Shown here piece after piece: positions 38,273-57,561 of a stretch of DNA of 64,000 bases (positions are counted from its first letter, which is position 1; every line of letters begins with the position of its first letter). A model generated the notes under the pieces. The model did no database searches, had not been told where the DNA came from, and worked only from the letters and a program-made list of their open reading frames with translations. Source of the DNA: an uncultured Verrucomicrobiae bacterium. Lineage in GTDB: Bacteria > Verrucomicrobiota > Verrucomicrobiia > Chthoniobacterales > UBA10450. The position numbers were made by a program, and so were the translations under genes. Where the stretch lies: assembly GCA_963772365.1 (NCBI GenBank), contig CAVYXA010000005.1, positions 32,001 through 96,000 of the forward strand, in the 5' to 3' direction.

Positions 38273-39232
38273 ATGCGCTACGTGTTGATTACTCCCGCGC
38301 ACAATGAGGCGCGTTTTATTACTAAAACGCTCGACTCAATGGCTGCGCAGACCCTCTTGCCCGAGCGCTGGATCATCGTCGATGATGGTTCAACGGACAG
38401 GACCGCGGAGATCGTCGGGACTTACGTACGGCGTTATCCTTGGATAGAGTTGATTCGGCGTCACCAACGCAAGGACCGAAACTTTGCCGGCAAAGTCCAT
38501 GCTTTCAACGCCGGATATTCGTCACTTGTCACTCATCACCCATCACTCTCCTTCGACGTCGTCGGGAATCTGGATGGCGACCTTTCTTTTCCGCCGGATT
38601 ATCTGGAGTTCCTGATACAAAAATTCGCCGAAGATTTCAGACTCGGTGTGGCTGGCACTCCGTTCACAGAGGATGGCGGTTACGACACCGCCAGGGATAG
38701 CTTTGAAGGAGAAAATTATGTCGCCGGTGGTTGCCAGTTATTCCGGCGCGCATGTTTCGAGGAGATCGGCGGCTACGTCCCCAATGCCGCCGGTGGTTTG
38801 GATTGGATCGCAGTCACCATGGCGCGGATGAAAGGATGGAAGGTGCGCTCCTTTTCGGAAAAACGATTTCATCATTACCGAACGCTGGGGACAGCGCAGC
38901 GGAATCAGTTCTCTGCTCTATTCTCCTACGGGGAAAGGGCTTATTACCTCGGCTGGTCGCCGATCTGGCAATTCGTTCGCTGCGTTTATCGCATGACTAG
39001 AAAACCGATCTTCTTCGGTGGCCTGGCCCTGCTCTCTGGTTACTGCTGGGCTGCTGTAAAGCGAACCAAACGCCCGGTGTCATCGGAAATCATTCGCTTC
39101 CATCGCCGCGAACAAATACGAAGACTTCGCGGCATTCTCGGACGCGTGTTGCGACTCAAAAAGATCGACAATTTTCGTTTAGAGCGTTCGGCTTCCGTCT
39201 CCGATCTTCCATCTTCGATCTCCGGTCGTTAA
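38273..39232 (+). CDS. Glycosyltransferase family 2
   Basis: ITPAHNEA, IIVDDGSTDRT, LDGD. Confidence 0.92.
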   Translation: MRYVLITPAHNEARFITKTLDSMAAQTLLPERWIIVDDGSTDRTAEIVGTYVRRYPWIELIRRHQRKDRNFAGKVHAFNAGYSSLVTHHPSLSFDVVGNLDGDLSFPPDYLEFLIQKFAEDFRLGVAGTPFTEDGGYDTARDSFEGENYVAGGCQLFRRACFEEIGGYVPNAAGGLDWIAVTMARMKGWKVRSFSEKRFHHYRTLGTAQRNQFSALFSYGERAYYLGWSPIWQFVRCVYRMTRKPIFFGGLALLSGYCWAAVKRTKRPVSSEIIRFHRREQIRRLRGILGRVLRLKKIDNFRLERSASVSDLPSSISGR

Positions 39233-39234
39233 GA

Positions 39235-40712
39235 ATGCAGTCATCCGTCGTCAATCATCGGTCGTCTGGAGACAAAGTCTCTCGCGTCCTAAGAAACTTC
39301 GTCAATTGGCTCGATAACTACGGCGACACTTCTTGGGATCACCAAAGTTTTTTTGCGGGACCGACGGGACGCATGGCAAAATCATTGTATTATCGACATC
39401 GATTCATCGGAACTGCGGCAGTCGCTCCGATGATTTTGTGTGAAGCCATCCTGCCCTCGGCAAGGCGACTGTTCCATCATCCAATCCGGTTCCCGATCTC
39501 CGATGCGCATTACGCGATGGCTTTGCCTTTCTTTATGAAACGACTGGAGAGCTTCATTGCCTCACGAAAGCAATTCACTTTTTAGATGAACTAAAAAAGT
39601 CGCGCAGTCCTGATTTCGAAGATTACTGCTGGGGTTATCCATTCGATTGGGTCACGCGCAAAGGAACAATTAAGGCACACACACCGCTGATCACGACAAC
39701 GCCGTACTGCTATGAGGCGTTTTTGCAAGTAGCGAAGCTGCTTGGTCAGAGATCAGAGATCAGAGATCAGAGATCAGATCGTGAATCTGAGGAATCAGCG
39801 TCTTCTGACTTCCGACCGCTGACATCTGGCCTCTGTGCGATGGACATCGCCGAGTCCATCGCGCGGCACGCAGCCAATGACATCAAAGACTTTCCAACGT
39901 CGGCAGCGGGCAGCAGTTGTTCTTACACGCCTTATGATGAAGGCGGAGTCATTAACGCTGCGGCGTATCGTGCTTTCCTGCTGACGAGCGCATCACAGGT
40001 TTTTTCCAATGACGATTACTGGAAGATCGGTGAGCGAAATCTGAATTTCGTTCTGGAGAACCAAAACCCCGATGGTTCCTGGTTTTATGCCGTCGATGGC
40101 GTGCGCAATTTTGTCGATCATTATCACACATGCTTTGTCATGAAGGCGCTGGCCAAGATTCACGATCTGACCGGGCATGAAGCGACTTTTACGGCACTCG
40201 AAAAGGGCGTTCAGTATTACCTCGAAAATCTGTTTGCGGAGGATGGAATGCCGAAGCCTTTTGCCAAGGCGCCGCGGCTGACCGTTTACAAACGGGAGCT
40301 CTACGACTGTGCCGAGTGCATCAATCTCTGCCTGTTGTTGCGCGACCGGTTCCCCGAGCTGGACACCACGCTGGAAACCGTCGTTCACGGAATGCTGAGC
40401 GACTGGATCAAGCCCGACGGCTCGTTCCGCTCGCGCCGGTTGCATCTTGGCTGGGACAACGTCCCGATGCATCGCTGGGGGCAGTCGCAGATGTTTCGCG
40501 CGCTCGCGCTCTATTTGCGCGAAACATCTGCGCAAGAGGACAGAAGTCAGAGGACAGGAGTCAGAGGTCAGATGTCAGCGGTCAGCGGTTCGCAGGGCGC
40601 GAACTATACGGCGGGAGGTCGTGAGAATCGATCTAGGGAAGCCGGCGACTCGGTTTTGGTGAAGACCGAGAGGTCAGAAATCGGTCGCAGCCGTCGGCCA
40701 TCAGTCGTCTGA
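39235..40712 (+). CDS. EPS-locus alpha/alpha-barrel-like protein, frameshift near 39525
   Basis: Frames join via CWGYPFDW...TPLITTT; QNPDGSWFY, FVDHYHTCF, MHRWGQSQM. Confidence 0.6.
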
Positions 40713-40717
40713 GTTAG

Positions 40718-42500
40718 ATGCGCGTCATGAAGATCTTGTACGCTAATCAGGTGTCGGAAAACGTAAAGCGTCTGAGCGCGCTGGCGGAGTGCCTTGGAAT
40801 CGAGACGGAACTCATAAACATTGGAGGAAATGGATCGTTCCTGACGCTGTTTGGGAATGGCTCACAAAAAAGAGGGATCGCTTTGGATGTAGCGAGCCTG
40901 AAGCACCGCACGAGTGGCGACGAACTGCGAAAGACGCTCGTTTCCGGTAGCGTGGCCAGTCTGCTCATTCTTGTGACGGACAACGACGAAGCAACCAATC
41001 GCTTCATCCGAGATCTAACGGCCGGAGAAATATCCGGTGTCGATCCGCAACGTTCGGTTGGAAAAGTATCATTCCCAGCATCTGGACAAGCGCTAAACCA
41101 TGATTTGTCTTCGCAGATATATCCGAGACAAAGTAAGGATGCGATTACGTTGAGGATTGCGCCTCCTTCAACTGCCGAGGTTGTAATGGAACTGAACGGT
41201 GCGGCCGGCTTTGCGCATTTCCGCCATGGTCGCGCCGAGTTTTTTATTTGGAGCACGACAGAAGTATTCGACATGAATCGCCGACTAGCAGCCGAGCTGG
41301 AGTTTGAACTCGCTTCCGATGAATATATTCCGGGTATCATCTTTCTCAGATCTGCATTCGGACAGCGGTGCTGGCATAACCCCGTTTCCGGCGCGGGAAT
41401 CGTCATCGACGATCCGTTGCTCAAGGAAAATTACGGCTTTATCGACTTTCGAAAACTTTTGGAGTCTGCCCGGAAACATCAATATCACGTCACCCTGGCT
41501 TTTATTCCCTGGAACTATTGGCGTAGCCGTCGCAAGACAACCCAGTTATTTCGGGATTATTCAGATTGCTTCGATATTTGTGCTCATGGGTGCGATCACA
41601 CTGACAGCGAATTCAGACACGGAAGTTACGACGAACTGCTGAGCCGAAATTTCATCGCCAGCAACCGAATGGCTACGCACGCTCTGCGCACCGGCATGGA
41701 GTCGGCAGCCCCTCATGGTATGTCCGAAGGAGCAATATTCGACCAAAGCGATGCAGGCTTTTGCCGATAGCAGGCAATTCATTGCGCTGATTTGCACTGC
41801 CTGCATGCCGCGCGACTTGGATCGGCCCGCACTAACAGGTTCCGATCTACTCCTTCCAGCGCAGGATTCCTTCTCAGGGTTCCCGGTTTTCAAGCGGCAT
41901 TACTCGAATGGGATGCAGACAGGTGTTTTCGCGATGGCGTTGTTCCTAGGGAAGCCAGCAATTCTGGTCGAGCATCATCAGTTTTTCCGCGGGGGACCGG
42001 CCGGTGCGGAGGAGTTCGCCAGACTGATCCGTGAGATGCAGCCGGGGTTGCGATGGAGGTCGCTTCAACAAACGGTGATGCGCACACATGCCCGACGCCA
42101 AATTTCCCATGACCGGTGGGCGATCCGATTTTTTACCGATCAGTTTCTTTTGGAACCGGTTCCGGAAAGCGGAATTCAATACGAGTTTATTCGAAGAGTT
42201 CCGGAGCCGACGCGTGTCGAATGCGTGCGTGTGGCAGGCAAGGAGATTCCATTCCGCAAACGGGATGGATTCCTCACATTCGAAACGGAATTGCGAGAGC
42301 CGGAGACCGTCCTTGTCGAGGTTAAAGTCACTCCCGCCAGACCAAGCAAATCGGCCTCAAACGGCGTCAAGCACCATACTCGGGTGGCACTTCGGCGCGG
42401 TCTGTGCGAAATGAGGGATAATCTGGTCGCGCGAAATCGATTTGCCGTTAACGCGGGTCGACGTCTGATGAAGACTTTCGGGCAGAAAGCGCGTCAATGA
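40718..42500 (+). CDS. Polysaccharide deacetylase-like protein, frameshift near 41710
   Basis: IVIDDP, LAFIPWN, ICAHGCDH; second ORF continues MVCPKE...LVEHH. Confidence 0.6.
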
Positions 42501-42623: not shown

Positions 42624-44514
42624 ATGTGCGGCATAACAGGCCAGTTTAACTTTATCCGGCGCGAACCGGTCGAACCGGACACGATCCGGCGCATGACTGC
42701 GACGATCGTTCACCGCGGACCGGACGATGAAGGGTATTACATTGCCGGGGGCATCGGGCTGGGCGTTCGCCGATTGTCTATCATCGATATTGCGGGCGGG
42801 CATCAGCCGATGTCCGACGCGGAAGAGACTGTCTGGGTCGCGTTCAATGGTGAGATTTACAATTTCAAAGAACTTCGCATCGAACTCGAACAGCATGGTC
42901 ACCAATTCCGCACCAAGTCCGATACGGAGGTGATCATTCACGGTTATAAACAATGGGGAACGGAGATCTTGAATCATCTCAATGGGATGTTCGGACTCGC
43001 CATTTGGGACGTGAAAAAACAGAGACTCGTCGTGGCGCGCGATGCCATGGGCATCAAGCTAATCTATTATAGGATCGACAATGGACGGCTGACCTTTGGG
43101 TCCGAAATCCGGCCGCTTCTTGCCGCAGACGATTCCAAGCCGGATGTCGATCCGGTCGCGCTGAATCTCTTTCTTCGTTTTCGTTATACGCCATCGCCGT
43201 TAACCATTTACCAGGGCATTCGAAAACTCGCGCCCGGCACGATGCTGGTTTGCGAAGATGGCAAGTGTGAAGAGAAACGCTGGTATAACTTTGTCCGAAC
43301 TCCGTTTCCGGAACACAAGGGCGAACAAGAAAGACGCGAAGAACTGCTGGAGTTGTATCGCGCGGCGGTCCGGCGACATTTGTTGAGCGATGTCCCAGTT
43401 GGGATTCTTCTCAGCGGTGGGCTCGACTCGGGATTGCTCCTGGCGCTGATGAACGAGCAGGGCGGTCCCTGGCCGGCTTATACGATCGGCTACGGCGAAA
43501 CATTCGATGACGACGAGCTGGTCGATGCAGCCGAAACGGCGAGGGCATTGGGTGCGCGGCATGTCACGGTAAAACTCGATCGAGGCGAGTTTGAAAGATC
43601 GCTGCCTAAAATCGTGGAATGCCTCGAGGAACCGATTGCTGCTTCTTCCATTGTGCCGATGTATTTTATCTGTGAGCGGGCACGACAGGATGTAAAGGTC
43701 GCCTTGATCGGCCAGGGACCCGACGAACTATTCGGCGGCTACAAACGTCACCTCGGTGTGTCACTATGGCGATTGGTGGCGGCTTCTACCGAAGAGTGTC
43801 CGGTCCGCTTTTGGGTATGCGGTAAACGGGCTGCCCCGCAACGAGACTCTCAAACGCGGCGTCGCTTCGCTGGGGACAAACGATCGGTTGAAACGATACC
43901 AGGATGTATTCGCGCTGGCGCCGGCCGAGACGATCGACGGTTTGTTTCAGGATGGCCTATTTCGAAATGGCCGCAGCCATGGTTTGGCCGATTACTGGAG
44001 CGACCTCGTACCCCAAATGGTCCATACCGATGAGCTGGGCGGATTTCAGCTGCTCGAGATCCGGTCGTCGCTTCCAGACGAGCTGCTCATGTATGCGGAC
44101 AAGCTATCAATGGCCCACAGCTTGGAGGCGCGTGTGCCGTATCTCGACCGGACCGTGGTGGAATACGTCCAGAGATTAAACGCCGATCTCAAGATTCGGA
44201 ACGGCAGCCGGAAATGGCTCCACCGGCAGGTCTGCGCGAAATATTTGCCGCGCCGGATTCTCAAGGGAAAGAAGCGTGGCTTCGCCGTAAACGTGGTGGA
44301 CGATTGGTTTCGCTCATCGCTGAATGGGAAATTCCAGGAATCGCTGCTCGACGAAGGTTCGCTCATGTTCGGCCTGCTCAAGTCCGGAGCGATACGGGAA
44401 CTGGTGAACGACCATCAATCCGGGCGTCAGGACAATCACAAGGTGCTGTTCAGCCTGGTGATGTTCGAGCAGTGGCTGCGCAGCAAAACATCACTTGCTG
44501 GCAAAAATCAGTAG
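42624..44514 (+). CDS. asnB: Asparagine synthase-like amidotransferase (glutamine-hydrolysing), frameshift near 43765
   Basis: MCGITG, HRGPD, FNGEIYN, LSGGLDS, GPDELFGGY, DKLSMAHSLEARVPYLD. Confidence 0.9.
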
Positions 44515-44519
44515 GACGG

Positions 44520-45557
44520 ATGAAATCTGCAATCAACAAGGCGTTTCTTTTTGCTTCCTATGGTTTCCCGCGGGCAATCCTTGCGAGGACCATTCATTTC
44601 CCCTTACTGGCACCGTTTTATCATCTGGTTAGTGATGATCACCCGCCACACATTAAGTATTTATTTCGTTATCGGACGATTGCCGAATTCAAAAGGGACA
44701 TAGAGTTTTTCTTACAAGATTACCACCCGATCAGTCTTGATGAAATCCTTCTACACATTAGAACGGGAAAAGCTCTGTCCCGAAAAAGCTTCTTTCTCTC
44801 TTTCGACGATGGACTACGCGAGATTCACGAAGTAATTGCACCGATTCTGAAGGAAAAAGGAATTCCGGCGACTTTCTTCGTGACAACCGCAACGCTCGAC
44901 AACGCCGACATGATCTACAGGCACAAAGCGAGCCTGATCGTTGATCAACTGATGAGAGTACAACAACAAAACATCGCAGAAGTGAAAAGAGTCCTGGGGA
45001 AAAGAGGAATCTACAATGACGATCTTGCGGCTGCAGTCCTTGGCGTAAAGTACAGGGACCGTGAAGTGCTCGATGACGTAGCACAATGCATCGAATTAGA
45101 CCTTAGAGAATACCTGGCTCGACGACGGCCCTACGCAAGCACTGGCGAAATCAAAAAGTTGATCTCAGAAGGGTTTACCATTGGTGCACACAGCGTTGAT
45201 CACCCGTTTTATCCAGAATTGCCCGTTGATGATCAATTGCGACAGACCAACGAAAGTCTCGAGATTGTCACCCGGCTATTTGGGCTTTCCTACAGAGCTT
45301 TCGCTTTTCCCTTCGGGGATAATGGAGTTCCAAAGCGATTTTTTAATCAAGTCCTGGCAGAAAACGCAGCCGATGTCCTGTTCGGTAGCAGCAGCTCATT
45401 TTGGAACGACGAATATTATCCGTTCGCTGTTCAGAGGCTCGGTATGGAGAGCGGATTTCATAGAGCGGCGGATAATCTGCGCGTCGCTGAGATCAAGTTC
45501 GGACTAAGAGTGATGATTGGCAGGTCGAACGTTAGAAGATCGAGTGGTAGAAATTAA
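44520..45557 (+). CDS. Polysaccharide deacetylase
   Basis: YHLV, LSFDDG, PATFFV, IGAHSVDHP, FAFPFG. Confidence 0.9.
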   Translation: MKSAINKAFLFASYGFPRAILARTIHFPLLAPFYHLVSDDHPPHIKYLFRYRTIAEFKRDIEFFLQDYHPISLDEILLHIRTGKALSRKSFFLSFDDGLREIHEVIAPILKEKGIPATFFVTTATLDNADMIYRHKASLIVDQLMRVQQQNIAEVKRVLGKRGIYNDDLAAAVLGVKYRDREVLDDVAQCIELDLREYLARRRPYASTGEIKKLISEGFTIGAHSVDHPFYPELPVDDQLRQTNESLEIVTRLFGLSYRAFAFPFGDNGVPKRFFNQVLAENAADVLFGSSSSFWNDEYYPFAVQRLGMESGFHRAADNLRVAEIKFGLRVMIGRSNVRRSSGRN

Positions 45558-46653
45558 GCAATACACACTGGCCGATTTGAGCGAGCTGGTGCACTCGAAC
45601 AGTTTTTGGAATGGAGATTTGATTCCAATTACAAAGCATCGCGCATTGTCCCAAGTCAAAAACCCACGCGCCCACCCGGAAGACGTTGTTTTGCTTGTCG
45701 CCCGAGACGGGGACACAATTTGTGGATTTACCGGTGTGTTGCCTGACCTCATTTTCTTGCCGGAAGAAACGCTCAGAGTAGGATGGCTTACGGCATGGTG
45801 GAGGAAACCCGGTTCACGATATGCAGGGATAGGGTCGAAGCTTCTGATGAGGGCGTTAGAGCTTTATCAGGGAGCAATTTGCGTGGAACCGCCTTCAGAG
45901 TCTGCCAGGAAGGTCCTGGAGAGGTCAGGACAATTCGTAACCCTGCAGGAGAACACGGAGGTGCGAGCGATCATAAGAGTGAATACGCGCTCTATTCTTT
46001 CTCGAAAGATTCCTGCATTGAAGAAATTCGGATTGTTTCTTGGACTGCCCGATAGTCTGGCGAACATTTTTTGCCGAGCGAGATTGCGATTTTGGACGGC
46101 GCGGCATGGAATCTCCGGAGCGCTGCGGGTCGAGTATATTACTGCAGTCGACCCTGAAACAGCCGATTTCGTAAACAAGCTCCGGGACCATGATTTGCAC
46201 AGAATGGGTGCGCCCGAGTTAAACTGGATTGCCCAGAGTCCGTGGATTTTAACGGCGCCTTTGAAGGAGGGAACGGTAAAGAACTACTATTTTTCAGCGA
46301 CCGCTAAAGAATCACTTTGTTTGATGATAAAGATTCTCGAATCTAAGGGCTCTCTGATTGGTTTTGCGATCCTGACGTTAATCAATGGGCACTTAAGAGT
46401 CCCATACTGTTACATGCAGCCCGAGCATGCCGATGAAGTATTTCGAGTCATCGGCGAACATGCGGTCGCCCTGCGAGCCGAAAGTCTCACCCTTGGTCGA
46501 TCGGAATTAAAAGCGAGTATGCGTCGCCTGAGGTTTCCATGTCTCCTAAGGAGCCAGAGGCTGCGCCGGTGGACGATTGGGAATCTGTACGCTGGCAAGG
46601 TCACACGCTGTGCTCAAATTCAGGATGGAGCCGGAGACTGCGCATTTTTTTAG
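45517..46653 (+). CDS. GNAT-like protein
   Basis: LVARDGDTICGF, GIGSKLL acyl-CoA-binding-like motif; ends DGAGDCAF. Confidence 0.55.
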   Translation: MAGRTLEDRVVEIKQYTLADLSELVHSNSFWNGDLIPITKHRALSQVKNPRAHPEDVVLLVARDGDTICGFTGVLPDLIFLPEETLRVGWLTAWWRKPGSRYAGIGSKLLMRALELYQGAICVEPPSESARKVLERSGQFVTLQENTEVRAIIRVNTRSILSRKIPALKKFGLFLGLPDSLANIFCRARLRFWTARHGISGALRVEYITAVDPETADFVNKLRDHDLHRMGAPELNWIAQSPWILTAPLKEGTVKNYYFSATAKESLCLMIKILESKGSLIGFAILTLINGHLRVPYCYMQPEHADEVFRVIGEHAVALRAESLTLGRSELKASMRRLRFPCLLRSQRLRRWTIGNLYAGKVTRCAQIQDGAGDCAFF

Positions 46654-46753: not shown

Positions 46754-47755
46754 GTGAGTGACGTGTCTAATAACTCTGCAAATGTCAGAATTTTTGAGGA
46801 GACAATCCGCTTCAGGGGCGTCCCTGTGCGGCGAACCGCTGTGTTGGTTGATCATCAAACATTCATCATTTCGGGAAAGTTTCTGAGAACGGCAAGCTTG
46901 AAAAGAGAGTGGCAGGAGGATGTGAGCGACCCGAGAACGGTCATTCAAGCACTAACGAGTGACCTTGCGAGACCCGATCTGCTGAAGTTCTGGCAGAGGG
47001 TTCCCGACATTGCTGCCAAGTTTGGCTACTACAAGGAATGGCGGCAAATTGCCGCGATCCCGATCACCAGTTACAAGCAATGGTTTGAAAAACAAATCAG
47101 TCCCAAGGCGCGAAACAAAATTCGAAAGTCGCAGAAACTTGGGGTCGTTGTCAGACAGGTCGATCTTAATGACGACTTTGTTAGCGGCGTCATGGCAATC
47201 TACAACCAATCTCCGATCCGGCGCGGGAAGCCGTTCTGGCATTACGGAAAAGATTTCGAGACGGTAAAGAGCGAATTATCGGCTGATTTGGACAGCTCTG
47301 TTCTTATCGGTGCCTATTACAAGGAAGAGCTAATCGGTTTCATTAAGTTTATGATCACCGACAGATACGCGATGACGCTGTTGATTCTGGATAAGATATC
47401 GCATCGCGACAAAGCGCCAATGAACGCGATGATCGCAAAGATCGTGGAGATTTGCGCCGACGAGAAGATTCCATATTTCACCTATACAGTGTGGCGGCGG
47501 GGCGAGCATGGTCAGTTTCAAGAAAGTGTTGGATTCAAAAAAATCCCAGTGCCCGAATACTTCGTTCCTTTGACAGCAAAGGGGAAATTAGCTTTGTGGC
47601 TCGGGTTACATAAAGGACTCAAGGGAGCGCTCCCAGAAAAAATAATGGTTTGGCTGTTAACAATGAGAGCGAAATGGTACGCAATGAAGTATTCTAAAAA
47701 ACACCGTACCCGATTGAACGCTGGGCACAAATCCATGGCGGTATCCTCGACCTAG
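46754..47755 (+). CDS. FemAB-like GNAT-fold protein
   Basis: ISPKARNKIRKSQKLGVVV matches the Fem-family R..IRK..K.GV helix; LIGAYYKEELIGF; PMNAMIAKIVE. Confidence 0.6.
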   Translation: MSDVSNNSANVRIFEETIRFRGVPVRRTAVLVDHQTFIISGKFLRTASLKREWQEDVSDPRTVIQALTSDLARPDLLKFWQRVPDIAAKFGYYKEWRQIAAIPITSYKQWFEKQISPKARNKIRKSQKLGVVVRQVDLNDDFVSGVMAIYNQSPIRRGKPFWHYGKDFETVKSELSADLDSSVLIGAYYKEELIGFIKFMITDRYAMTLLILDKISHRDKAPMNAMIAKIVEICADEKIPYFTYTVWRRGEHGQFQESVGFKKIPVPEYFVPLTAKGKLALWLGLHKGLKGALPEKIMVWLLTMRAKWYAMKYSKKHRTRLNAGHKSMAVSST

Positions 47756-47808: not shown

Positions 47809-48810
47809 ATGAAAAGCCCAATATTTATTGTGGGGCCGCACCGAAGCGGGAGCACGCTTTGGCATAATCTCATTGCGATGTGTCCAGGCGTCATGAGATT
47901 GGGCGATCCGCGGTTTCTCGCGCGGCGGGGACAACTCGATTTCAGATTCTTTCTTAACACACAGGCTCGTAACCTGGCGACGATCGAAGAGAGCGAAACT
48001 CTGGTCGAGCTCTGTTTCTCGAAAAAGCGCATCCCAGGTCTGGAAGGCGCTTTCTGGAGATTTGAAGGCATTCCCGCGGTGGACGATCCCGAATTGCGAA
48101 AGGAAGTTGCTCGCCGGATTTTTGAATCGGATCGGAGCTCGGGAACGATCGCGCGGATTTTGATTGAAGAGATCACGAGGTTTAGCGGATGTGAGCGGGC
48201 CTGCATCAAGTTTCCTGTCGATGTTGCGCATATCTCGGAGCTGATGGAATGGTTTCCGGAGGGGAAGGTTGTTCATATCACGCGGGATCCCCGAGCCTTG
48301 GCGATGTCGAAGAGCAACGATCCGTCCGGAACGGCGATTAAACTGGTGAAACATCCGCGGTTTGCCTGGCTGATAAGAAAGGCGAGCATCTGGGCGACAA
48401 TTGTTCAGTATCGCCTCAGTGCGCAAGTGCATCAGCAGTTTCAGGGGCGAACGAATTACCAGTTGTTTCGATATGAAGATTTATTGGCCGATCCGGAACA
48501 GATTTTGCGTGAGCTTTGCGAATTCATCGACACCGATTTTCAGGAAGAGATGCTTGAACCGCAAATGGGCCGCCATGAACATCAGCCGTCGAGCCTGACT
48601 GGCAAACGGCAGAAAGCGTTCGACCCAGCCGCAGCGGACCGATGGAGAAATGTGATTCCGCGAATAGATTACTGGCTGATCACCTGCTTTACGCACGGCA
48701 GCATGAAAACATTGGGATACGGAGACAGACGTCAGAAGTCACAAGTCAGAAATCAGCACTCGAAACACGACAATAGCTCGGACGTAGTTGAGTATTTCGC
48801 TGACCGCTGA
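47809..48810 (+). CDS. Sulfotransferase
   Basis: PIFIVGPHRSGSTL, ITRDPRA, RYEDLLADPE. Confidence 0.9.
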   Translation: MKSPIFIVGPHRSGSTLWHNLIAMCPGVMRLGDPRFLARRGQLDFRFFLNTQARNLATIEESETLVELCFSKKRIPGLEGAFWRFEGIPAVDDPELRKEVARRIFESDRSSGTIARILIEEITRFSGCERACIKFPVDVAHISELMEWFPEGKVVHITRDPRALAMSKSNDPSGTAIKLVKHPRFAWLIRKASIWATIVQYRLSAQVHQQFQGRTNYQLFRYEDLLADPEQILRELCEFIDTDFQEEMLEPQMGRHEHQPSSLTGKRQKAFDPAAADRWRNVIPRIDYWLITCFTHGSMKTLGYGDRRQKSQVRNQHSKHDNSSDVVEYFADR

Positions 48811-48872
48811 CCACTGATCGCTGTCTTCTGTCCTCCGTCGTCGGTCCTCTGTTTTGTTTTGGAATCTAATTT

Positions 48873-48963
48873 GGAGAGGTGGCTGAGTGGTTTAAGGCAG
48901 CAGCTCGAAAGAGCTGCTATACGGCAGCGGCCGTATCGGAGGTTCGAATCCTTCCCCTCTCCG
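48873..48963 (+). tRNA. Non-canonical tRNA-Ser-like gene lacking a normal anticodon loop
   Basis: GGAGAGG acceptor, GAGTGG D-loop, GCAGCTC-GAAA-GAGCTGC hairpin, long variable arm ATACGG/CCGTAT, GGAGG-TTCGAAT-CCTTC, G discriminator; CCA not encoded. Confidence 0.9.
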
Positions 48964-49089
48964 CTCTTCCAAAACTGAAATACTGAAAACTGAAACGCTG
49001 AAAATTCCAGCATGTCCGCCTTTCCCGCTTTTGTGTTCTCTGACTTCAGTTTTTCCTTTTATCAGAGTTTCAGATTTTTAGCGTAACTT

Positions 49090-50964
49090 ATGCCTGGCAT
49101 AGTTGGAATCGTTAGCCGCCGGCCGGCAGGCCAATGCGAGTCCCTGGTTTACTCAATGGCGGCTACGATGCAGCATGAGAGCTTTTACAAATCGGGAGCC
49201 CATTCTGCTCCGGAGCTGGGAATCTACGCGGCTTGGGTTGCGCATGAGAACTCGTTTGCCGCGAGTCAGGCCTTCTTCAACGAGCAACAGGATGTCGCGC
49301 TCCTCTTTTCGGGCGAATGCTTCGCGGATCCGGAAATTGTGTCCAACCTCCGGGAAAAAGGCCATAACATCACGACAACGAGGGACTGGTTAGTTCATCT
49401 CTACGAAGATGAAGGGGACAGATTTTTTGAAAAATTGAACGGCCTCTTTAGCGGATTGTTGATTGATAAACGACAGCGAAAAACATTTCTCTTCAACGAC
49501 CGGTACGGACTGGAACGCATCTATTTTCACGAACGGGATAACGATCTCTATTTTGCCAGCGAGGCGAAGGCTTTGTTGCGAGTTCTGCCCGAGCTAAGGG
49601 GATTTGATCGGGAGGGTGTCGCGCAGTTCGTCGCTTTCGGGTGTACGCTGCAAACACGAACGTTATTTCGGGGCGTTGAAATGCTCCCAGGAGCGTCGTG
49701 CTGGGCATTTGAAAACGGAACGTGCCGGAAACGAACTTATTTCTCTCCGAAGCAATGGGAGGAGCAAAGCTTCCTTTCGCCCGATGAATTTGAAACCCAG
49801 TTTCAAGAGACATTTGCAGAGATATTGCCCAAGTACTTCGAATCGGAATCAAAAATCGGTATCTCGCTAACCGCCGGTTTGGATTCCCGAATGATTATGG
49901 CGTGTCTTCCAGGAACAAAACAGCCGCCTGTTTGTTATACATTCTCCGGCCAACATCGGGATACGTTAGATGCCCGTCTGGCGGCCCAGGTTGCGAAAGC
50001 CTGTGGCCTGGAACACAAAACTTTTCCCGTTCGTCCCGATTTTTTCTCCGACTTCAGATCTCTTGTCGATCAAACCGTTTACCTCAGCGACGGCTATCTG
50101 GGAGTTCTCGGCGCACATGAGATTTACTTTAACGGGCGGGCGCGCCAGTTGGCGCCCGTGCGAATCACCGGAAATTTCGGAAGCGAGATCCTTCGAAACG
50201 TTTCGACGTTCAAGTCGCGTCGGCTTTCACCTGAACTGATCAATCCGGATGTTCTTCGAGATACAGGTGACGTAGCGTCTGCTCTCGATCGAAACCGATG
50301 TAACCCGGTCAGTTTTGCGGCATTCCGGGAAATACCGTGGAAAAGATTTGGAATCCTGAAGGCGGGAAGTTCTCAATGTGCTTTTCGAACTCCTTATCTT
50401 GATAATCGACTTGTAGGCCTGGCCTATCGAGCCCCTGAAAGCCTCCGCAACTCCCCGTATCCGGCGCTGCGTCTTGTGGAGAAGAACCATCGGGGTCTTA
50501 CTCAAATTCCGACAGACATGGGGTTCACTATATATAATCGGAAGGCTCCTCTGTTTCGAAATGCGTTTTTCAAGGCGACCTTCAAACTGGATTATCTCTA
50601 CAATGATGGTCTGCCTCACTTTCTATCTTCGCTAGACCCATTTTTTAGGGGAGTGCATTTGAGGTCAGGTCTTTTGGGCCTTCACAAATTCCTTCATTAC
50701 CGAACATGGTTTCAGCATGAGCTTGCGAACTATATTGTTGAAAGTTTGGAAGGCGCGCGAACAAACGCGGACTGTTTCTGGAATCCTCGTTTTCTTGAAC
50801 ACGTTGGGATAGGCCATACGCGCGGCCGAAAGAACTACCTCCAGGAGATCGACATCGTGCTGACCTTGCAAGCTGTCGAGCGACTGCTTTTTACAGATCT
50901 GCCTCGCTCCATTAATCCAGTTCCGACTTCCATCCGATCGGTTGAACTGGCAACAGCACATTAG
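49090..50964 (+). CDS. AsnB-like amide ligase lacking the N-terminal catalytic Cys
   Basis: Starts MPGIVG; NDRYG, FASEAKAL, SLTAGLDSR, RTPYLDN. Confidence 0.85.
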   Translation: MPGIVGIVSRRPAGQCESLVYSMAATMQHESFYKSGAHSAPELGIYAAWVAHENSFAASQAFFNEQQDVALLFSGECFADPEIVSNLREKGHNITTTRDWLVHLYEDEGDRFFEKLNGLFSGLLIDKRQRKTFLFNDRYGLERIYFHERDNDLYFASEAKALLRVLPELRGFDREGVAQFVAFGCTLQTRTLFRGVEMLPGASCWAFENGTCRKRTYFSPKQWEEQSFLSPDEFETQFQETFAEILPKYFESESKIGISLTAGLDSRMIMACLPGTKQPPVCYTFSGQHRDTLDARLAAQVAKACGLEHKTFPVRPDFFSDFRSLVDQTVYLSDGYLGVLGAHEIYFNGRARQLAPVRITGNFGSEILRNVSTFKSRRLSPELINPDVLRDTGDVASALDRNRCNPVSFAAFREIPWKRFGILKAGSSQCAFRTPYLDNRLVGLAYRAPESLRNSPYPALRLVEKNHRGLTQIPTDMGFTIYNRKAPLFRNAFFKATFKLDYLYNDGLPHFLSSLDPFFRGVHLRSGLLGLHKFLHYRTWFQHELANYIVESLEGARTNADCFWNPRFLEHVGIGHTRGRKNYLQEIDIVLTLQAVERLLFTDLPRSINPVPTSIRSVELATAH

Positions 50965-51757: not shown

Positions 51758-51829
51758 GGTTCGGCGAACGGTTCGTGGTTGTCAGCAAATGAGATCGGTC
51801 AACGGATTGAAATCAGAGGCGGTTTCGCA

Positions 51830-52822
51830 ATGATGAAATCCAAGAGATTCTCAGAGAAGAGATTTCTGATCATCGGAGGCACAAGCAGGGCCGGAACAAC
51901 CGCTGTATTCAATTATCTCGCCGGTCACCCGGAAATGTGCGCCTCGATCGCCAAAGAGACGCGGTTCTTTCTGGATCGCGGTTACCCGCTCCGCTCGGAG
52001 AAGCGATATGCAAGAGACGGGGCGGAAGCGTACCTCTCGTTCTTTGAAAACAAAGCAGAGCGAAACGGAGGACGCTGGTGTTTGGAAGCTACCCCGGACT
52101 ACCTTTACTCTCAGGGTACCGCTAATTTAATTCATGAAACCCTGCCGAACGTTTCCTTCATTTTTATCTTACGCGATCCGGTTTCAAGACTGATTTCTTT
52201 TTATCGGTTTGGTCGGCAGCTGAATGAAATCCCTTCCCGGATGAGCTTTGATCAGTACGTCGAACTGCAAAAAAATGACTCCTGCAAGTCGCTCTTGGAT
52301 AAGTATCGGCACCCTGCCTTTTGCGCCCTGCCGCATGGCCGTTACTCGGTCTATTTGAAGCCATATCTCGAGTTGTTTGGGAGATCGGCGATCCACATAG
52401 AATTTTACGAGGATCTGAAACGCAATCCGACCAGCTTCGTGCAATCGATTTGCCGGTGGGCCGGGATAAACGAGAGCTATTTCCATCATCGACCTCTCGA
52501 AGTCGCGAACAAGAGCATGAACGTGCGGAGCCAGCGTTTGAATCGCACATACTTTGAAGTGAAACGAAGAGCTCTGATTTTTAAGCGCCGTAATCCGCGG
52601 TTGTGGTCGATTCTCCATGCGGCGTTGCATCGAGCAGACGTCGGCTACAGGAAGATGAACATCAAGAAGCCGAACGAGGTCACAATGTCTCTTTCGACGA
52701 AGGAGCTACTGTCAAACTATTACCGGGAGGAGCCTGCACAGCTTTCGGAGCTTTTGGGTATTGAAATCCCATGGTTGGAAAAGATGCCAGCCGATTCAGC
52801 GGACAGGCGGGCAGCTTCCTGA
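51830..52822 (+). CDS. Sulfotransferase
   Basis: IIGGTSRAGTT, KETRFF, EATPDYL, LRDPVSRLIS, YEDL. Confidence 0.88.
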   Translation: MMKSKRFSEKRFLIIGGTSRAGTTAVFNYLAGHPEMCASIAKETRFFLDRGYPLRSEKRYARDGAEAYLSFFENKAERNGGRWCLEATPDYLYSQGTANLIHETLPNVSFIFILRDPVSRLISFYRFGRQLNEIPSRMSFDQYVELQKNDSCKSLLDKYRHPAFCALPHGRYSVYLKPYLELFGRSAIHIEFYEDLKRNPTSFVQSICRWAGINESYFHHRPLEVANKSMNVRSQRLNRTYFEVKRRALIFKRRNPRLWSILHAALHRADVGYRKMNIKKPNEVTMSLSTKELLSNYYREEPAQLSELLGIEIPWLEKMPADSADRRAAS

Positions 52823-52838
52823 ACAGAGCACCAAAGAA

Positions 52839-54344
52839 ATGAGCGCCGTAGTCGAGACCGCCGAGCCTGTGCTGACCAAAATCAGCCGGCAAAGCATCAT
52901 CGTGTTTCTGACCAGAGCCGTGGCGGTGCTGCTGGGAATCGGCTCAACTTTTCTTCTGGCCAGGATTCTGGGACCCTCTGGATTTGGAAAGTTTCGGCTT
53001 GGATCTGTCGTAGTCCAACTGGTGACGGGATTCTGTATTCTTGGATTGGACAGAGCCTTGCTTCGATATCTCCCGGCTCTAGAGACTCGCGCCGAAAGCG
53101 GTAGAGGTCTCTTGATTCGGGCCGGCAGCATTGTGTTCGTTATATCGGTGGCTTTGTCGATCCTCTTGTTCGCCAACGCTTACCTTGTCGCAACGCTTGT
53201 ATTTCACTCCCGCGAAATGGCCGGCGTCATCCGTTTCTTTTCGTTGCAGATTCCGGTCCTCGCGGCTTTCCGGTTCTTTTCGGGTGCAGTTACCGCATCA
53301 AAACGTTTCGATTACGCATCGAAGATCACCAATATTCTTTCCCCCACGATTTTTGTAGTACCGCTGATCCTCCTGTTTGTAGTGCATCCAAGTATTTACG
53401 GGACAATCAGTGCACGTATCGTGGGACAGTTTGTGGCGGTTGCATGTCTCGCCCTGTTTCTTCTCCGGCGTTATCCGAATGTGACTCAAAACGGACCGGC
53501 CGCCCCAGGTACGTTCAAAAGCTATGTCATGCTTTCGGTTCCGCTTTTTATGATCGGGCTCGGATATCAGTTGTTGCATCAGATGGATACGCTAATGCTC
53601 GGATATTTTTCCAGCCAGAAGGATGTCGGCATTTATTCTGTGGCTTTGAAAATATCTGCTTTTGTTCTCATCGGGATCGAAATCATGTTGCCGATTGTCT
53701 CCCCCTTGTTTTCGCAATTTTGTGAGACCCGTGACCGCCAGTCGATGGAGGGACTGTTTAATACGAGCACGAAGTGGCTGTCCTACGCGGGACTGGTGAT
53801 ATTCACCTGCATCGCTATTTTCCGCGAGGAGGTGTTGCACGTTTTCGGAAAGGGATTCGTCGGCGGCTCGACTGTTTTGCTGATACTTTCTGCCGGGCAA
53901 TTGGTGAATGCGGCGACCGGCCCAACGGGAGCGCTGCTGACTATGACTGGTAAACAAAAGTGGGAGCTTGCCAATACAGGGGTAATGGTCGGGATAAATT
54001 TCCTGCTGAACCTCCTGTTGATCCCGAGAATGGGAATGACCGGCGCAGCAATCGCGACGGCCACTAGCATTGCGCTTATCAATAGCGCGAAACTTATTCA
54101 AGTTTATCTGCTATTCGGAATACGCGCGTATGACTGGAGATTTTTAAAAGGGCTGATTGCGGTTGGAACCGCAGCGGCAGTCGCTTACGCGTTTCGGCTC
54201 TGGTTGGAGAATTTCGGGTGCGGTCCTTACACGGTAATGCCGGTGGGTGGAATGGCATTCCTGATTACGGCTGGGACTGCATTCTGGCTGCTGGGACTGG
54301 ACCAGGAAGATAAGCTGGCCCTGGTGGCTCTGCGCAGGCGGTAG
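52839..54344 (+). CDS. Wzx-type polysaccharide flippase
   Basis: LARILGPSGFG, DTLMLGYF, VGIYSVA; many TM segments. Confidence 0.9.
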   Translation: MSAVVETAEPVLTKISRQSIIVFLTRAVAVLLGIGSTFLLARILGPSGFGKFRLGSVVVQLVTGFCILGLDRALLRYLPALETRAESGRGLLIRAGSIVFVISVALSILLFANAYLVATLVFHSREMAGVIRFFSLQIPVLAAFRFFSGAVTASKRFDYASKITNILSPTIFVVPLILLFVVHPSIYGTISARIVGQFVAVACLALFLLRRYPNVTQNGPAAPGTFKSYVMLSVPLFMIGLGYQLLHQMDTLMLGYFSSQKDVGIYSVALKISAFVLIGIEIMLPIVSPLFSQFCETRDRQSMEGLFNTSTKWLSYAGLVIFTCIAIFREEVLHVFGKGFVGGSTVLLILSAGQLVNAATGPTGALLTMTGKQKWELANTGVMVGINFLLNLLLIPRMGMTGAAIATATSIALINSAKLIQVYLLFGIRAYDWRFLKGLIAVGTAAAVAYAFRLWLENFGCGPYTVMPVGGMAFLITAGTAFWLLGLDQEDKLALVALRRR

Positions 54345-54370: not shown

Positions 54371-55165
<795 letters not shown>

Positions 55166-55258: not shown

Positions 55259-56251
55259 ATGAATATCTTGATCCTTAAACGGGGCGCGACGGGCGACGTG
55301 GTAAGGACGACGCCATTACTGGCCCGGCTAGAAGGAAATTTCACCTGGATCACGGAAGCGAATAATGCCGTTCTGCTTAAAGGACTGGGGAAACATCTGC
55401 GTTGTTTCGCTTGGGAAGATCGGGAAAAAGCGCTGGATAGATCCTACGATCTGGCAATCAACCTCGAGGATACTGTCGATGTAGCTCAATTTCTGAAACA
55501 GCTAAAATGCAGCGATCTCTTTGGCGCTTACCTTGGCCCCAACAACTCCTTGCGATACACCAAAAATTCGCAGTGTTGGTTCGATCTCAGCATCATCAGT
55601 ACTCTGGGAAAGCTGAAAGCTGACAAGCTGAAATTCGGAAATCGAAAGACGTATCAACAGTTGATTTTTAAGGGTATTGGCTTCGAGTTTGCCGGCGAAA
55701 CCTATTTGCTGCCGGATGCCATTGAGACCGGTCTGACTGGCGATATAGCTATCGCCGCGGAAGCCGGGATGGTGTGGCCGATGAAGAAGTGGGCGCATTA
55801 TCTCGAACTGAAACGAGCTTTGGAAGCGGAGGGTTTTAGGGTGAATGTGTTGCCGAAGAGAGGATCTCTTCTGGAACATTTGGCCGATGTCCGCAATCAT
55901 CAATGCCTCGTTAGCGGTGACAGTCTCCCGATGCATTTCGCGCTCGGGACAGGAACCCGCTGCGTAACGTTGTTCACCTGCACGAGCCCATGGGAGATCT
56001 ACGATTACGGTGTTCAGGCAAAAATCGTTTCACCTTTGCTGGAAGAATTCTTTTATAAGCGCGGCTATGACGAGCGGGCGACGACATCGATCAGCGTTGA
56101 TCAAGTGTTCGAGGCCGTGATGCAGCAACTGGCAGCTTCAAAGGTCAGATCCGCCAAAGGACGGATTCGCCGTGGCGAAGGTCAGAAATCAGAAGTCAGC
56201 GCGATTGAAAGCGCGGAGCGCGATGCTGCTCGTGACAAGGCAATAGTATGA
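55259..56251 (+). CDS. Glycosyltransferase family 9-like
   Basis: GATGDVVRTTP, WPMKKW, VSGDSLPMHFA. Confidence 0.85.
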   Translation: MNILILKRGATGDVVRTTPLLARLEGNFTWITEANNAVLLKGLGKHLRCFAWEDREKALDRSYDLAINLEDTVDVAQFLKQLKCSDLFGAYLGPNNSLRYTKNSQCWFDLSIISTLGKLKADKLKFGNRKTYQQLIFKGIGFEFAGETYLLPDAIETGLTGDIAIAAEAGMVWPMKKWAHYLELKRALEAEGFRVNVLPKRGSLLEHLADVRNHQCLVSGDSLPMHFALGTGTRCVTLFTCTSPWEIYDYGVQAKIVSPLLEEFFYKRGYDERATTSISVDQVFEAVMQQLAASKVRSAKGRIRRGEGQKSEVSAIESAERDAARDKAIV

Positions 56252-57561
56252 TTGTCTCGGAGATTAGCGATCAGAAGTTCGCCCCGGCGAATCCGTCCAC
56301 GGGCGGATCAGATATCGCGGTCGACTGTTCCGCCCGCGGTCCTCAGTCCTCCGTCCTCAGTCATCCGACTCTGCATGTCGCTTTGCTGAGCGGTGGCGGA
56401 GACAAGCCTTACGCGCTGGGGATGGCCGAAGGGCTAACCTCAGCCGATGTGTTTGTTGATCTTGTTGGCAGTAATGATCACTCGGCGCCAGGACTGTTGG
56501 GCATTCCTCGTTTGAACTTTCTTAATCTCCGAGGTGATCAGTCGACGGAGGCAAACTGGTTGGCAAAGATTTCGAGAGTATCGAAATATTATATTCGACT
56601 GATTCGGTACGCTGCGACGGCAGAACCCAAAGTGTTTCACATCTTGTGGAACAACAAGTTTGAATTTTTCGATCGGACGCTCTTGTTGATCTATTACAAA
56701 TTGCTGGGCAAGAAGATCGTTTTTACGGCCCATAATGTAAACGCAGGCAAACGCGATTTGAATGATTCGTGGCTTAACAGATTGTCGCTGCGAATTCACT
56801 ATCGCCTGTGCGATCACATTTTCGTTCACACCGACAGTATGAAACGGGAACTCACGATGGATTTCGGAGTCCCGCAACGCAAGGTGAGCGTCATCCCGTT
56901 TGGAATTAACAACACGGTTCCGAACACAAACTTATCAAGAGGAGAGGCAAGACAACATCTTGGCCTGACAGATGGCGATCGGGCGCTGTTGTTCTTCGGC
57001 AACATCGCGCCTTACAAGGGGCTGGAATATCTGATCGCGGCATTCACAAAACTCTCAGAGAGGGACACTAGTTACCGATTGATTGTCGCGGGAAGACTCA
57101 AAGGGGACGAGAGTTACCGGCACCGCATTCAGCGAGTGCTGAAAAATTGTGGTGTGCGCGACCGAATCGTTGAACGGATGGAATACGTGCCCGATGAGGA
57201 GACAGAATTGTATTTCAAAGCGGCCGACGTCCTAATTCTGCCCTACACCCGCGTATTTCAGAGTGGCGTGCTCTTTTTGGGATATAGTTTTGGTCTTCCC
57301 GCGATTGTCGCCGACGTGGGCGAACTGAGACAAGACATCATCGAAGGCGAGACGGGATTTGTATTTGAACCGCGGAACTCATCCGACCTCATGGCCAGGA
57401 TCGACAGGTACTTTAGGAGCGACTTATTTCACGATGCGGAAAAGACACGATCAAGGATCAAGGCCTACGCCAACAAGCGCTACGCGTGGAGCAAAGTTGC
57501 CGCAATCACCAAGGAAGTTTACACGAATCTTTTGCAGTCGAGACCTGGCGCGCTGGCTTAA
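56248..57561 (+). CDS. Glycosyltransferase family 4
   Basis: LFFGNIAPYKGL, ADVLILPY, QSGV, GETGFVF; repeat-derived N-terminal extension. Confidence 0.9.
   Translation: MIVSEISDQKFAPANPSTGGSDIAVDCSARGPQSSVLSHPTLHVALLSGGGDKPYALGMAEGLTSADVFVDLVGSNDHSAPGLLGIPRLNFLNLRGDQSTEANWLAKISRVSKYYIRLIRYAATAEPKVFHILWNNKFEFFDRTLLLIYYKLLGKKIVFTAHNVNAGKRDLNDSWLNRLSLRIHYRLCDHIFVHTDSMKRELTMDFGVPQRKVSVIPFGINNTVPNTNLSRGEARQHLGLTDGDRALLFFGNIAPYKGLEYLIAAFTKLSERDTSYRLIVAGRLKGDESYRHRIQRVLKNCGVRDRIVERMEYVPDEETELYFKAADVLILPYTRVFQSGVLFLGYSFGLPAIVADVGELRQDIIEGETGFVFEPRNSSDLMARIDRYFRSDLFHDAEKTRSRIKAYANKRYAWSKVAAITKEVYTNLLQSRPGALA

Follow-up and report, generated by a model that had tools for sequence, protein, structure and literature searches.

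We identified a 91-nt RNA gene within a 64,000-nucleotide stretch of DNA from an uncultured Verrucomicrobiae bacterium (GenBank assembly GCA_963772365.1, contig CAVYXA010000005.1, forward-strand positions 32,001 to 96,000; hereafter, the window, corresponding to C5:32001-96000 of a 3.35 Mb assembly of 6 contigs). The RNA possesses the body of a serine tRNA, with a closed tetraloop hairpin in place of the anticodon arm, and is encoded among polysaccharide biosynthesis genes close to a gene for a 333-aa protein whose predicted fold resembles those of the Fem and MprF aminoacyl-tRNA-dependent transferases. On comparative grounds we consider it reasonably likely that this RNA takes no part in decoding and acts as a dedicated carrier of serine for a Fem-like enzyme that modifies glycans. 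Four elements of this proposal find direct support in the results below: the RNA family with its structure, the presence of this RNA in excess of the serine tRNAs needed for decoding, the predicted fold of the neighbouring protein, and the close synteny of the two genes.

Structure of the RNA and the serine tRNAs of the source genome

The structural elements of the RNA are collected with their coordinates in Table 1. An earlier note on this DNA, made from the letters of the sequence, had described a complete type-II tRNA body, and every base that it named is present, comprising the acceptor pairs, the discriminator G, the GG of the D loop and the TTCGAAT T loop. Also confirmed was the hairpin GCAGCTC-GAAA-GAGCTGC occupying the place of the anticodon arm. 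The long variable arm is paired as had been proposed, but extends beyond the ATACGG/CCGTAT originally given, comprising 7 bp (ATACGGC/GCCGTAT) around an AGCG loop. Further core positions read from the sequence are U8, G9 and A26. With respect to the features expected of tRNA-Ser, the window RNA possesses a 7-bp acceptor stem with G1-C72 and G2-C71, G73, a paired long variable arm, a 3-bp D stem containing C11-G24, G18G19 and a canonical T loop; the variable arm measures 20 nt, compared with 16-20 nt for the normal tRNA-Ser genes of the source genome. Lacking, on the other hand, are an anticodon stem of 5 bp bearing a 7-nt loop (with U33, R37 and an anticodon for serine), and the regular 7/5 acceptor/T helix of 12 stacked pairs, instead of which an extra nucleotide is found in the 3′ strand. 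This extra T-stem nucleotide is absent from all four normal tRNA-Ser genes of the source genome.

The predicted folding energy of the window RNA was -43.9 kcal/mol, compared with -29.9 +/- 3.2 kcal/mol for dinucleotide shuffles, none of which (0/200) equalled it, and the tetraloop arm by itself accounted for a predicted -12.2 kcal/mol. ARAGORN reported positions 48873-48964 as 'tRNA-??? anticodon (gaaa)', the sole tRNA called in the window, and an unnamed call of this kind (undetermined or pseudo) is what the earlier note had anticipated. Searches of the whole window against Rfam at gathering thresholds matched zero families, the tRNA family included. At relaxed thresholds, the best match of the window RNA was to tRNA-Sec (RF01852; 37.3 bits vs a cut-off of 47). 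A tRNA-Sec identity was dropped in view of the 3-bp D stem, the 7-bp acceptor stem, in which pair 4:69 covaries, and the sub-threshold score. Similarly dropped was an 8-bp acceptor stem making use of the base 5′ of G1, as this base is g, a or t among members of the RNA family described below.

Elsewhere in the source genome, whose tRNA set comprises 48 tRNA genes and a tmRNA and includes a true tRNA-Sec, four normal tRNA-Ser genes were identified, bearing the anticodons GCU, GGA, UGA and CGA. The separate serine tRNAs whose presence the earlier note had proposed to verify are therefore all accounted for, and the window RNA is surplus to the serine decoding set, as would be expected of a carrier tRNA. 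A single serS gene, encoding seryl-tRNA synthetase (SerRS), was identified (462.8 bits), and no dedicated second SerRS was found in the source genome, with only one weak match of 30.5 bits besides serS.

Conservation and distribution of the RNA family

A first similarity search of 61 related genomes recovered five look-alikes in four other genera, in each of which a 7-bp stem capped by GCAA replaces the anticodon arm. These five sequences and the window RNA were aligned with MAFFT, and the resulting covariance model (CM) was applied to 151 genomes belonging to one taxonomic family with the source, 13 of which contained a total of 15 copies scoring 85.4-112.8 bits (four of the 151, G159, G008, G003 and G014, are unpublished and contribute to denominators only, no match from them being used). 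The next matches in these genomes scored at most 78.8 bits and those inspected, including L036, were ordinary tRNA-Ser(GCU). With tRNA-Ser(GCU) as the normal tRNA scoring nearest to the model, the origin from tRNA-Ser(CGA) hinted at in the earlier note is not shown. Scanning one genome per GTDB species for exact matches to a 24-nt 3′ motif of the RNA yielded 52 stretches, or 51 loci upon removal of one duplicate, of which 48 contained a total of 50 full RNA copies as judged by the CM. A scan of metagenomes with the same motif yielded at least 122 stretches, and a full copy was present in 78 of the 80 loci examined. Across family genomes, GTDB and metagenomes, the family thus amounts to at least 142 copies and at least 111 distinct sequences.

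Judging from their titles, most of the hosts belong to Verrucomicrobiota (Chthoniobacterales, Pedosphaera, Limisphaerales, Opitutaceae and Udaeobacter), with further members among Acidobacteriota and in single metagenome-assembled genomes (MAGs) titled Alphaproteobacteria, Methylomirabilota, Chloroflexota, Eremiobacterota and Bifidobacteriaceae. Near-identical pairs of RNA and Fem-like genes were found under different phylum titles (L072 and L079, titled Terriglobales and Elarobacter; L066 and L083, titled as an unclassified bin and Limnocylindrales), which may reflect binning contamination or recent transfer of the cluster. Because the same architecture is observed in at least 111 distinct sequences from independent assemblies, an assembly artefact can be ruled out as the source of the RNA.

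Evidence for selection on the structure was obtained from the pattern of substitutions. In the six-sequence alignment, the cloverleaf was 98.3% paired and eight pairs were changed on both sides, values approached by none of 500 shuffles or by slid registers. Among 48 distinct GTDB sequences, compensatory change was observed in six of the seven pairs of the anticodon-position stem, with 96.3% of cells paired, and the covariation score of the whole structure was 0.285, compared with 0.149 +/- 0.007 in shuffles (0/500 as high) and at most 0.08 in slid registers. The 48-sequence alignment was fitted to the CM, which favours the structure, and the independent six-sequence alignment agrees with it. 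From the 105 anticodon-position arms that could be parsed, loops of 4 nt were found in 93, of 5 nt in four and of 6 nt in eight, with no loop of 7 nt. GNRA loops made up 87 of these (GCAA in 72, GAAA in 11 and GUAA in four), the other 4-nt loops including UCAC, ACAA and CUUG; six further arms were not parsed automatically, and by eye five of them carry a GCAA or GUAA loop. It is the stem, then, that is under selection, with the loop serving as a cap and not as a reading head.

These patterns bear directly on the possibility that the RNA takes part in decoding by means of an expanded loop, translating four-base codons or suppressing frameshifts or stops. Such a role would accord with the 4-base anticodons reported by ARAGORN for some members and the opened-stem identities reported for others (Ala(cgc), Stop(tta), Cys(gca), Leu(caa/taa), Phe(gaa) and Val(cac)), as well as with a 5-nt UUUAU loop in three related MAGs that could open to 7 nt. 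The pairs that would need to open nevertheless covary, U33 and R37 are absent, the hairpin is very stable (-12.2 kcal/mol), and the loop varies in a manner unlike that of an anticodon (GCAA, GAAA, GUAA, CUUG, UCAC). We consider a decoding role very improbable; the earlier claim that the RNA does not decode is strengthened in particular by covariation of the two pairs that must open for a loop to form. The opened-stem names were assigned by ARAGORN to the Ser-type members L053, L054, L055, L061, L063, L072, L079, L080, L086, L088, L092, L096, L099 and L100. These labels represent an annotation hazard, which could seed false reports of suppressor or otherwise odd tRNAs.

The elements by which a serine tRNA would be recognized, by its synthetase and by tRNA-processing enzymes alike, are also conserved across the family. 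Among the 48 GTDB sequences, G1-C72 was present in 47, G2-C71 in 48, A3-U70 in 47 and C11-G24 in 48, and among 99 distinct sequences with readable 3′ ends, G73 was present in 98 and CCA was encoded in 62. The elbow is canonical throughout the family (D-loop GG, T-loop TTCRAAT), and the variable arm ranges from 16 to 20 nt. Conservation of G1-C72, G2-C71, C11-G24, G73 and the variable arm, together with the encoded CCA, lends comparative support to the view that the RNA may be charged by SerRS, as the earlier note had supposed. The extra T-stem nucleotide is found in every family member, the bulged position being U in 87 and A in 12, a pattern more in keeping with an unpaired base than with G.U pairing.

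A decaying tRNA-Ser pseudogene, or the remnant of a mobile-element attachment (att) site, was also considered. Three loci from Holophagaceae MAGs (L056, L058 and L078) carry the 24-nt 3′ motif without a CM match, as might be expected under such a scenario, and degenerate arms were observed in the family members L067 and L097. At L078 only a 3′ fragment is present, with no tRNA body, beside a tRNA-Pro gene on the opposite strand, and this motif looks like a tRNA-gene fragment left by integrating elements. Elsewhere, however, the helices are kept by compensatory change in at least 111 distinct sequences from several phyla and at a fixed position within the operon, leaving a pseudogene or att origin close to excluded; the covariation also speaks against recent copying from one mobile sequence. 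From these comparisons the window RNA is a member of a conserved structured family and not a product of decay, in agreement with the argument against random decay in the earlier note. A second, 75-nt copy of the RNA was found at L057:12616-12690 (45.4 bits), beside the gene for an AsnB-like protein; it retains the acceptor, D and T arms but has lost most of the anticodon and variable arms, and could represent a remnant or a minimal form.

A Fem-like neighbour and proposed carrier RNAs of differing identity

The 333-aa protein encoded upstream of the RNA has more than 1,200 homologues, all of them unnamed or annotated as hypothetical with the exception of one GNAT-tagged protein, and none of them with a Pfam domain. 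An AlphaFold (AF2) model generated from an alignment of 22 sequences (pLDDT 85.5) was compared with known structures, and the top ranks from Foldseek corresponded to Sbb17/Sba18, which are peptide synthases dependent on aminoacyl-tRNA, to Weissella FemX and to the aminoacyl-phosphatidylglycerol synthase domains of MprF/aaPGS. VIA-align returned Z scores of 19.2 for FemX (6snr), 18.4-18.6 for Sbb17/Sba18, 17.4 for FemA, 16.6-17.1 for Weissella FemX and 15-16 for MprF. All of the top 13 VIA-align matches are aminoacyl-tRNA transferases (Z 15.3-19.2 over 232-262 residues), and the model consists of two GNAT-like lobes in the Fem arrangement. At the level of sequence the resemblance is faint, with a match of the protein to GNAT chains of the PDB (E 5e-4), and the Fem-like protein of a relative gave a sub-threshold match to PF13480 (E 0.0033).

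Association between the RNA and this protein was observed throughout the loci surveyed. In 45 of 48 GTDB loci, profile searches placed a Fem-like open reading frame no more than ~4 kb from the RNA; of the three remaining, two lie at contig ends and the third, L091, has no cluster gene at all. The nearest Fem-like gene was on the same strand as the RNA for 47/47 copies and was separated from it by a median of 51 nt. Likewise, the second of two AsnB-like proteins of the operon (AsnB-like 2) was encoded on the same strand for 43/43 copies, mostly downstream and with a median gap of 78 nt. Among metagenome loci, examined with a flank of 1.5 kb, a Fem-like or AsnB2-like gene was present in 73 of 80. 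Of the 151 genomes of the taxonomic family, the Fem-like protein was found in 32 and the RNA in 13, all 13 falling within the 32. In genetic terms, then, the RNA is linked to a putative Fem-type transferase, and the homologue search proposed in the earlier note has led to a family situated in polysaccharide loci with a Fem-like neighbour and no normal 7-nt loop among its parsed arms. The further suggestion that the RNA serves a non-ribosomal reaction, by way of a transferase within a polysaccharide locus, gains comparative support from the proximity of RNA and Fem/MprF-fold protein, of which the earlier note was unaware; no element of the inference drawn there was contradicted.

Taken together, these features are compatible with the following route. 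The RNA would probably be transcribed as part of the polysaccharide operon, its maturation being carried out by RNase P, RNase Z and the CCA-adding enzyme. The housekeeping SerRS, which recognizes its tRNAs by the acceptor end and the long variable arm, not by the anticodon, is predicted to charge it with serine, and the closed GNRA hairpin would bar it from translation. Located at the region of EF-Tu binding, the extra T-stem nucleotide probably helps in this exclusion, by analogy with staphylococcal tRNA-Gly. The Fem/MprF-like transferase may then move the seryl group from Ser-RNA to a glycan intermediate, at either an amine or a hydroxyl group, an acceptor suggested by genomic context, after which AsnB-like, sulfotransferase and glycosyltransferase enzymes would process the seryl intermediate further. 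More speculatively, the polysaccharide deacetylase of the operon could expose an amine for serylation, the Cys-less AsnB-like 2 could introduce another amide, and a sulfated product might be indicated by the sulfotransferases and CysQ.

To our knowledge, dedicated non-proteinogenic tRNAs occur in very few systems, essentially that of staphylococcal peptidoglycan, in which the anticodon is kept. In Staphylococcus aureus, as described in PMC9976931, non-proteinogenic tRNA-Gly isoacceptors donate glycine to FmhB, FemA and FemB, with T-stem pairs 49-65 and 51-63 altered to escape EF-Tu. The window family resembles these in possessing extra genes beyond the decoding set, a link to the Fem family, changes to the T stem where EF-Tu makes its pair contacts and, by prediction, charging by the housekeeping synthetase. 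Whereas tRNA-Gly of S. aureus, according to the same text, keeps a normal anticodon loop, sits in tRNA clusters and serves peptidoglycan, the present family possesses a tetraloop hairpin and an extra T-stem nucleotide, its gene is placed in a polysaccharide operon beside the enzyme, and its hosts are mostly Verrucomicrobiota and Acidobacteriota. The window family is probably a variant of this known class, namely a non-proteinogenic carrier tRNA for Fem-type transferases.

Comparisons were extended to other tRNA-like molecules and related enzymes. The tRNA-like domain of tmRNA similarly lacks an anticodon, mimics the acceptor/T arm of tRNA and is aminoacylated (with Ala, via G3.U70), as the window RNA is predicted to be. 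However, tmRNA enters the ribosome with SmpB and has an mRNA part, whereas the window RNA is a full 91-nt cloverleaf with D, variable and T arms, which contains no coding portion and shows no connection with ribosome rescue. Allo-tRNAs and tRNA-Sec (PMC5389517; RF01852) share the long variable arm and serine identity, but possess acceptor/T arrangements of 8/4, 9/3, 8/5 or 9/4, a long D stem of 6 bp closed by a tetraloop, and an anticodon that functions, in contrast to the 7-bp acceptor stem, 3-bp D stem, normal GG loop and missing anticodon loop of the window RNA. With Weissella FemX, Sbb17/Sba18 and MprF/aaPGS, the 333-aa protein has in common a two-lobed GNAT fold over 230-262 residues; it differs in its low identity to them (8-15%), in having its own carrier RNA gene and presumably in acting upon a glycan. 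Finally, an AsnB-type amidotransferase, a Fem-like protein, a deacetylase and a GT4 are also features of XrtA/PEP-CTERM exopolysaccharide loci, but scores here were below cut-off, at 474.7 vs 816.9 bits to TIGR03108 for the first AsnB-like protein (AsnB-like 1) of a relative in which it is intact, and 20.9 vs 260 to TIGR03019. No report of a tRNA-like gene in XrtA/PEP-CTERM loci was found in the literature searched, and we know of no such gene. More generally, tRNAs with an anticodon loop converted to a tetraloop, or tRNA genes within operons of this kind, were not described in the literature covered by full-text searches (most subscription journals being outside coverage), including passages of PMC7609411, PMC5389517 and PMC13434031.

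Inspection of Fem-like loci lacking the Ser-type RNA revealed sister clusters with tRNA-like genes of other apparent identities. In 11 of the 19 Fem-positive family genomes without the Ser type, a deviant 'tRNA-Thr' gene of 72-78 nt directly follows the Fem-like gene (~30-100 nt past it in L108, L110, L112-L114 and L116-L121), and a further Thr-type RNA was found at L089:11080-11154. These RNAs have G1-C72 and C2-G71 in the acceptor stem and a 7-nt anticodon loop in which G35-U36 is always present and position 34 is C, U or A; the D loop lacks GG and the T stem contains two mismatches. A canonical tRNA-Thr(CGU) was present elsewhere in 5/5 Thr-type genomes tested. At L089, both types are found in the order Fem-like, Ser-type RNA, second Fem-like, Thr-type RNA, AsnB-like 2. 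A quick maximum-likelihood tree, built from 59 Fem-like proteins, united the second L089 protein in one clade with 10 of the 11 that are Thr-linked (SH-aLRT 99), and the Thr label required three changes, compared with 10.3 in shuffles, a descriptive value only given that kin share labels. Five loci additionally contain an alanine-type counterpart, a class-I-sized RNA of 75-79 nt (Table 1) with G1-C72, G2-C71, G3.U70 and A73. CCA is encoded in these Ala-like RNAs, although in L065 and L101 the sequence is cut after A-C. Here too a closed hairpin, ending in GCAA or a mini-loop, replaces the anticodon arm, and the labels assigned by ARAGORN were '???', Lys or SeC.

According to the identity rules in PMC9976931, the serine and alanine synthetases ignore the anticodon and the threonine synthetase reads it. 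The anticodon loop is lost in the Ser and Ala types and kept in the Thr type, that is, the anticodon is retained only where the synthetase reads it, a pattern that would be hard to explain unless the RNAs were aminoacylated. A broader proposition, which we regard as evenly balanced, is that Fem-like transferases of soil and freshwater polysaccharide operons own aminoacyl carrier RNAs of at least three identities (Ser, Ala and Thr), which would be insulated from the ribosome through the T stem and have exchanged the anticodon loop for a tetraloop exactly where the synthetase ignores it (Ser, Ala), keeping it where it is read (Thr). If true, this would represent a natural, modular diversion of charged amino acids into glycan decoration, and would offer a ready-made ribosome-orthogonal tRNA scaffold. 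The anticodon-less family would show that a tRNA can be stripped to a pure aminoacyl carrier and that the identity rules of aminoacyl-tRNA synthetases predict which carriers can lose the anticodon, and it would extend tRNA-dependent aminoacylation to polysaccharides on the surface of soil phyla that are abundant and for the most part uncultured. The family also provides a testable handle on an unannotated enzyme family of more than 1,200 homologues, and on how carriers may be shielded from EF-Tu and the ribosome.

Roles for the RNA that do not involve a transferred amino acid were also weighed against the sister clusters. The RNA might be an uncharged structural or processing element, cut by RNase P and RNase Z as punctuation that splits or stabilises the operon mRNA, or acting as a scaffold for the AsnB-like or Fem-like protein. 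GNRA tetraloops are common docking or protein-binding motifs, and the RNA lies within a co-oriented operon with short gaps, where a crude scan tuned to other bacteria found no sigma-70-like promoter or + strand terminator between the RNA and its flanking genes. An element of this sort would not need the SerRS-specific G73, G2-C71 and long variable arm, or the CCA encoded in 62/99 sequences, and would leave unexplained the Thr (G35-U36) and Ala (G3.U70, A73) marks found beside different Fem-like clades, and we consider it unlikely. Less likely still is a regulatory tRNA mimic that senses serine or SerRS status, or titrates a tRNA-binding protein, to tune polysaccharide output. The surplus of the RNA to decoding would suit such a mimic, and cell-wall regulatory effects of the Bacillus cereus pseudo-tRNA tRNA-Other, described in PMC3399842, offer a precedent. 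Rfam scans of the window, on the other hand, revealed no T-box or other leader, and both the tight pairing with the Fem fold and the switching of tRNA identity with Fem clade point to use of the RNA as a substrate.

Returning to the proposed seryl carrier, a number of observations weigh against it. CCA is not encoded in the window copy of the RNA. Aminoacyl-tRNA use is not proven by the fold of the 333-aa protein alone, because plain tandem-GNAT acetyltransferases also score Z 13-15 against the model, if with worse root-mean-square deviations, and the sequence falls below threshold for both PF02388 (FemAB; E 0.18) and TIGR03019 (20.9 bits vs 260). Eight of the 32 Fem-positive family genomes have no tRNA-like gene near the Fem-like gene, none being found by the CM, ARAGORN or, for five of the eight, an Rfam E-value scan, and the RNA is consequently not an obligatory partner of that gene. 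Furthermore, many sequences of the RNA family are close kin, such that the counts reported above overstate independent support. Finally, three genes of the window cluster, encoding two unannotated proteins and AsnB-like 1, are split between frames, whereas they are single open reading frames in relatives; this may be due to long-read indel error or real pseudogenisation, and the operon of the window may accordingly be damaged or mis-assembled. Permissive ARAGORN calls in RNA-negative loci ('Ala' in L111 and '?' in L115) were set aside owing to coding overlap or poor fold.

Organization of the surrounding locus

All of the glycan-related genes listed in Table 1 are co-oriented with the RNA.

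Table 1. Elements of the window RNA, genes of the surrounding operon and Ala-like RNAs of other loci. Positions are those of the window unless preceded by a locus label.
Feature	Position	Strand	Description
Anticodon-less tRNA-Ser-like RNA	48873..48963	+	Type-II cloverleaf; CM score 111.8 bits
Acceptor stem	48873-48879 with 48956-48962	+	GGAGAGG/CCTCTCC, 7 bp; sequence reading
D arm	48882-48898	+	3-bp stem, 11-nt loop holding GG
Anticodon-position hairpin	48900-48917	+	GCAGCTC-GAAA-GAGCTGC; palindromic, 7-bp stem, GAAA tetraloop
Variable arm	48919-48936	+	ATACGGC/GCCGTAT, 48919-48925 with 48930-48936, 7 bp, AGCG loop
T arm	48938-48954	+	GGAGG-TTCGAAT-CCTTC
Extra nucleotide	48955	+	C in T-stem/acceptor 3′ strand (CCTTC-C-CCTCTCC); equally readable as bulged N64
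Discriminator	48963	+	G
GT2	38273-39232	+	
Unannotated protein	39235-39585 plus 39723-40712	+	Split here, whole in relatives
Second unannotated protein	40718-41770 plus 41715-42500	+	Split here, whole in relatives
AsnB-like 1	42624..44514	+	XrtA/PEP-CTERM-amidotransferase-like; Cys2, SGGLDS; overlapping frames 42624-44033 and 43756-44514
Polysaccharide deacetylase	44214-45557	+	
GNAT protein	45517-46653	+	378 aa
Fem/MprF-like protein	46754..47755	+	333 aa; candidate aminoacyl-tRNA-dependent transferase; no Pfam family
Sulfotransferase	47809..48810	+	Between Fem-like gene and RNA
AsnB-like 2	49090..50964	+	624 aa; starts MPGI, PP-loop TAGLDS; directly 3′ of RNA
Further sulfotransferase	51779-52822	+	
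Wzx-type flippase	52761-54344	+	
CysQ	54371-55165	+	
GT9	55259-56251	+	
GT4	56248-57561	+	
Ala-like RNA	L088:5505-5580		
Ala-like RNA	L092:14482-14557	-	
Ala-like RNA	L065:8357-8431		
Ala-like RNA	L101:8490-8564		
Ala-like RNA	L085:214-292	-	

Divergence between the two AsnB-like proteins was evident at their N-termini. Homologues of AsnB-like 1 begin with MCG in 28/28 cases and possess SGGLDS, and position 2 of AsnB-like 2 homologues is Pro in 34 of 38, Ser in three and Val in one, and never Cys. AsnB-like 2 also gave weak matches to lasso-peptide cyclases and, with its N-terminal catalytic Cys missing, resembles a conserved, glutaminase-dead amidoligase-like protein. Comparison with the loci of five relatives indicated that the block comprising the deacetylase and GNAT genes (44214..46653) is an insertion, with no counterpart in any of the five. 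The slot between the Fem-like gene and the RNA, filled in the window by a sulfotransferase, is also filled in L052, L060, L063, L073, L082, L086 and L102. Short direct repeats were additionally observed on either side of the RNA gene, being GCTGACC-like upstream (48800-48825) and CTGAAA-like downstream (48968-49005).

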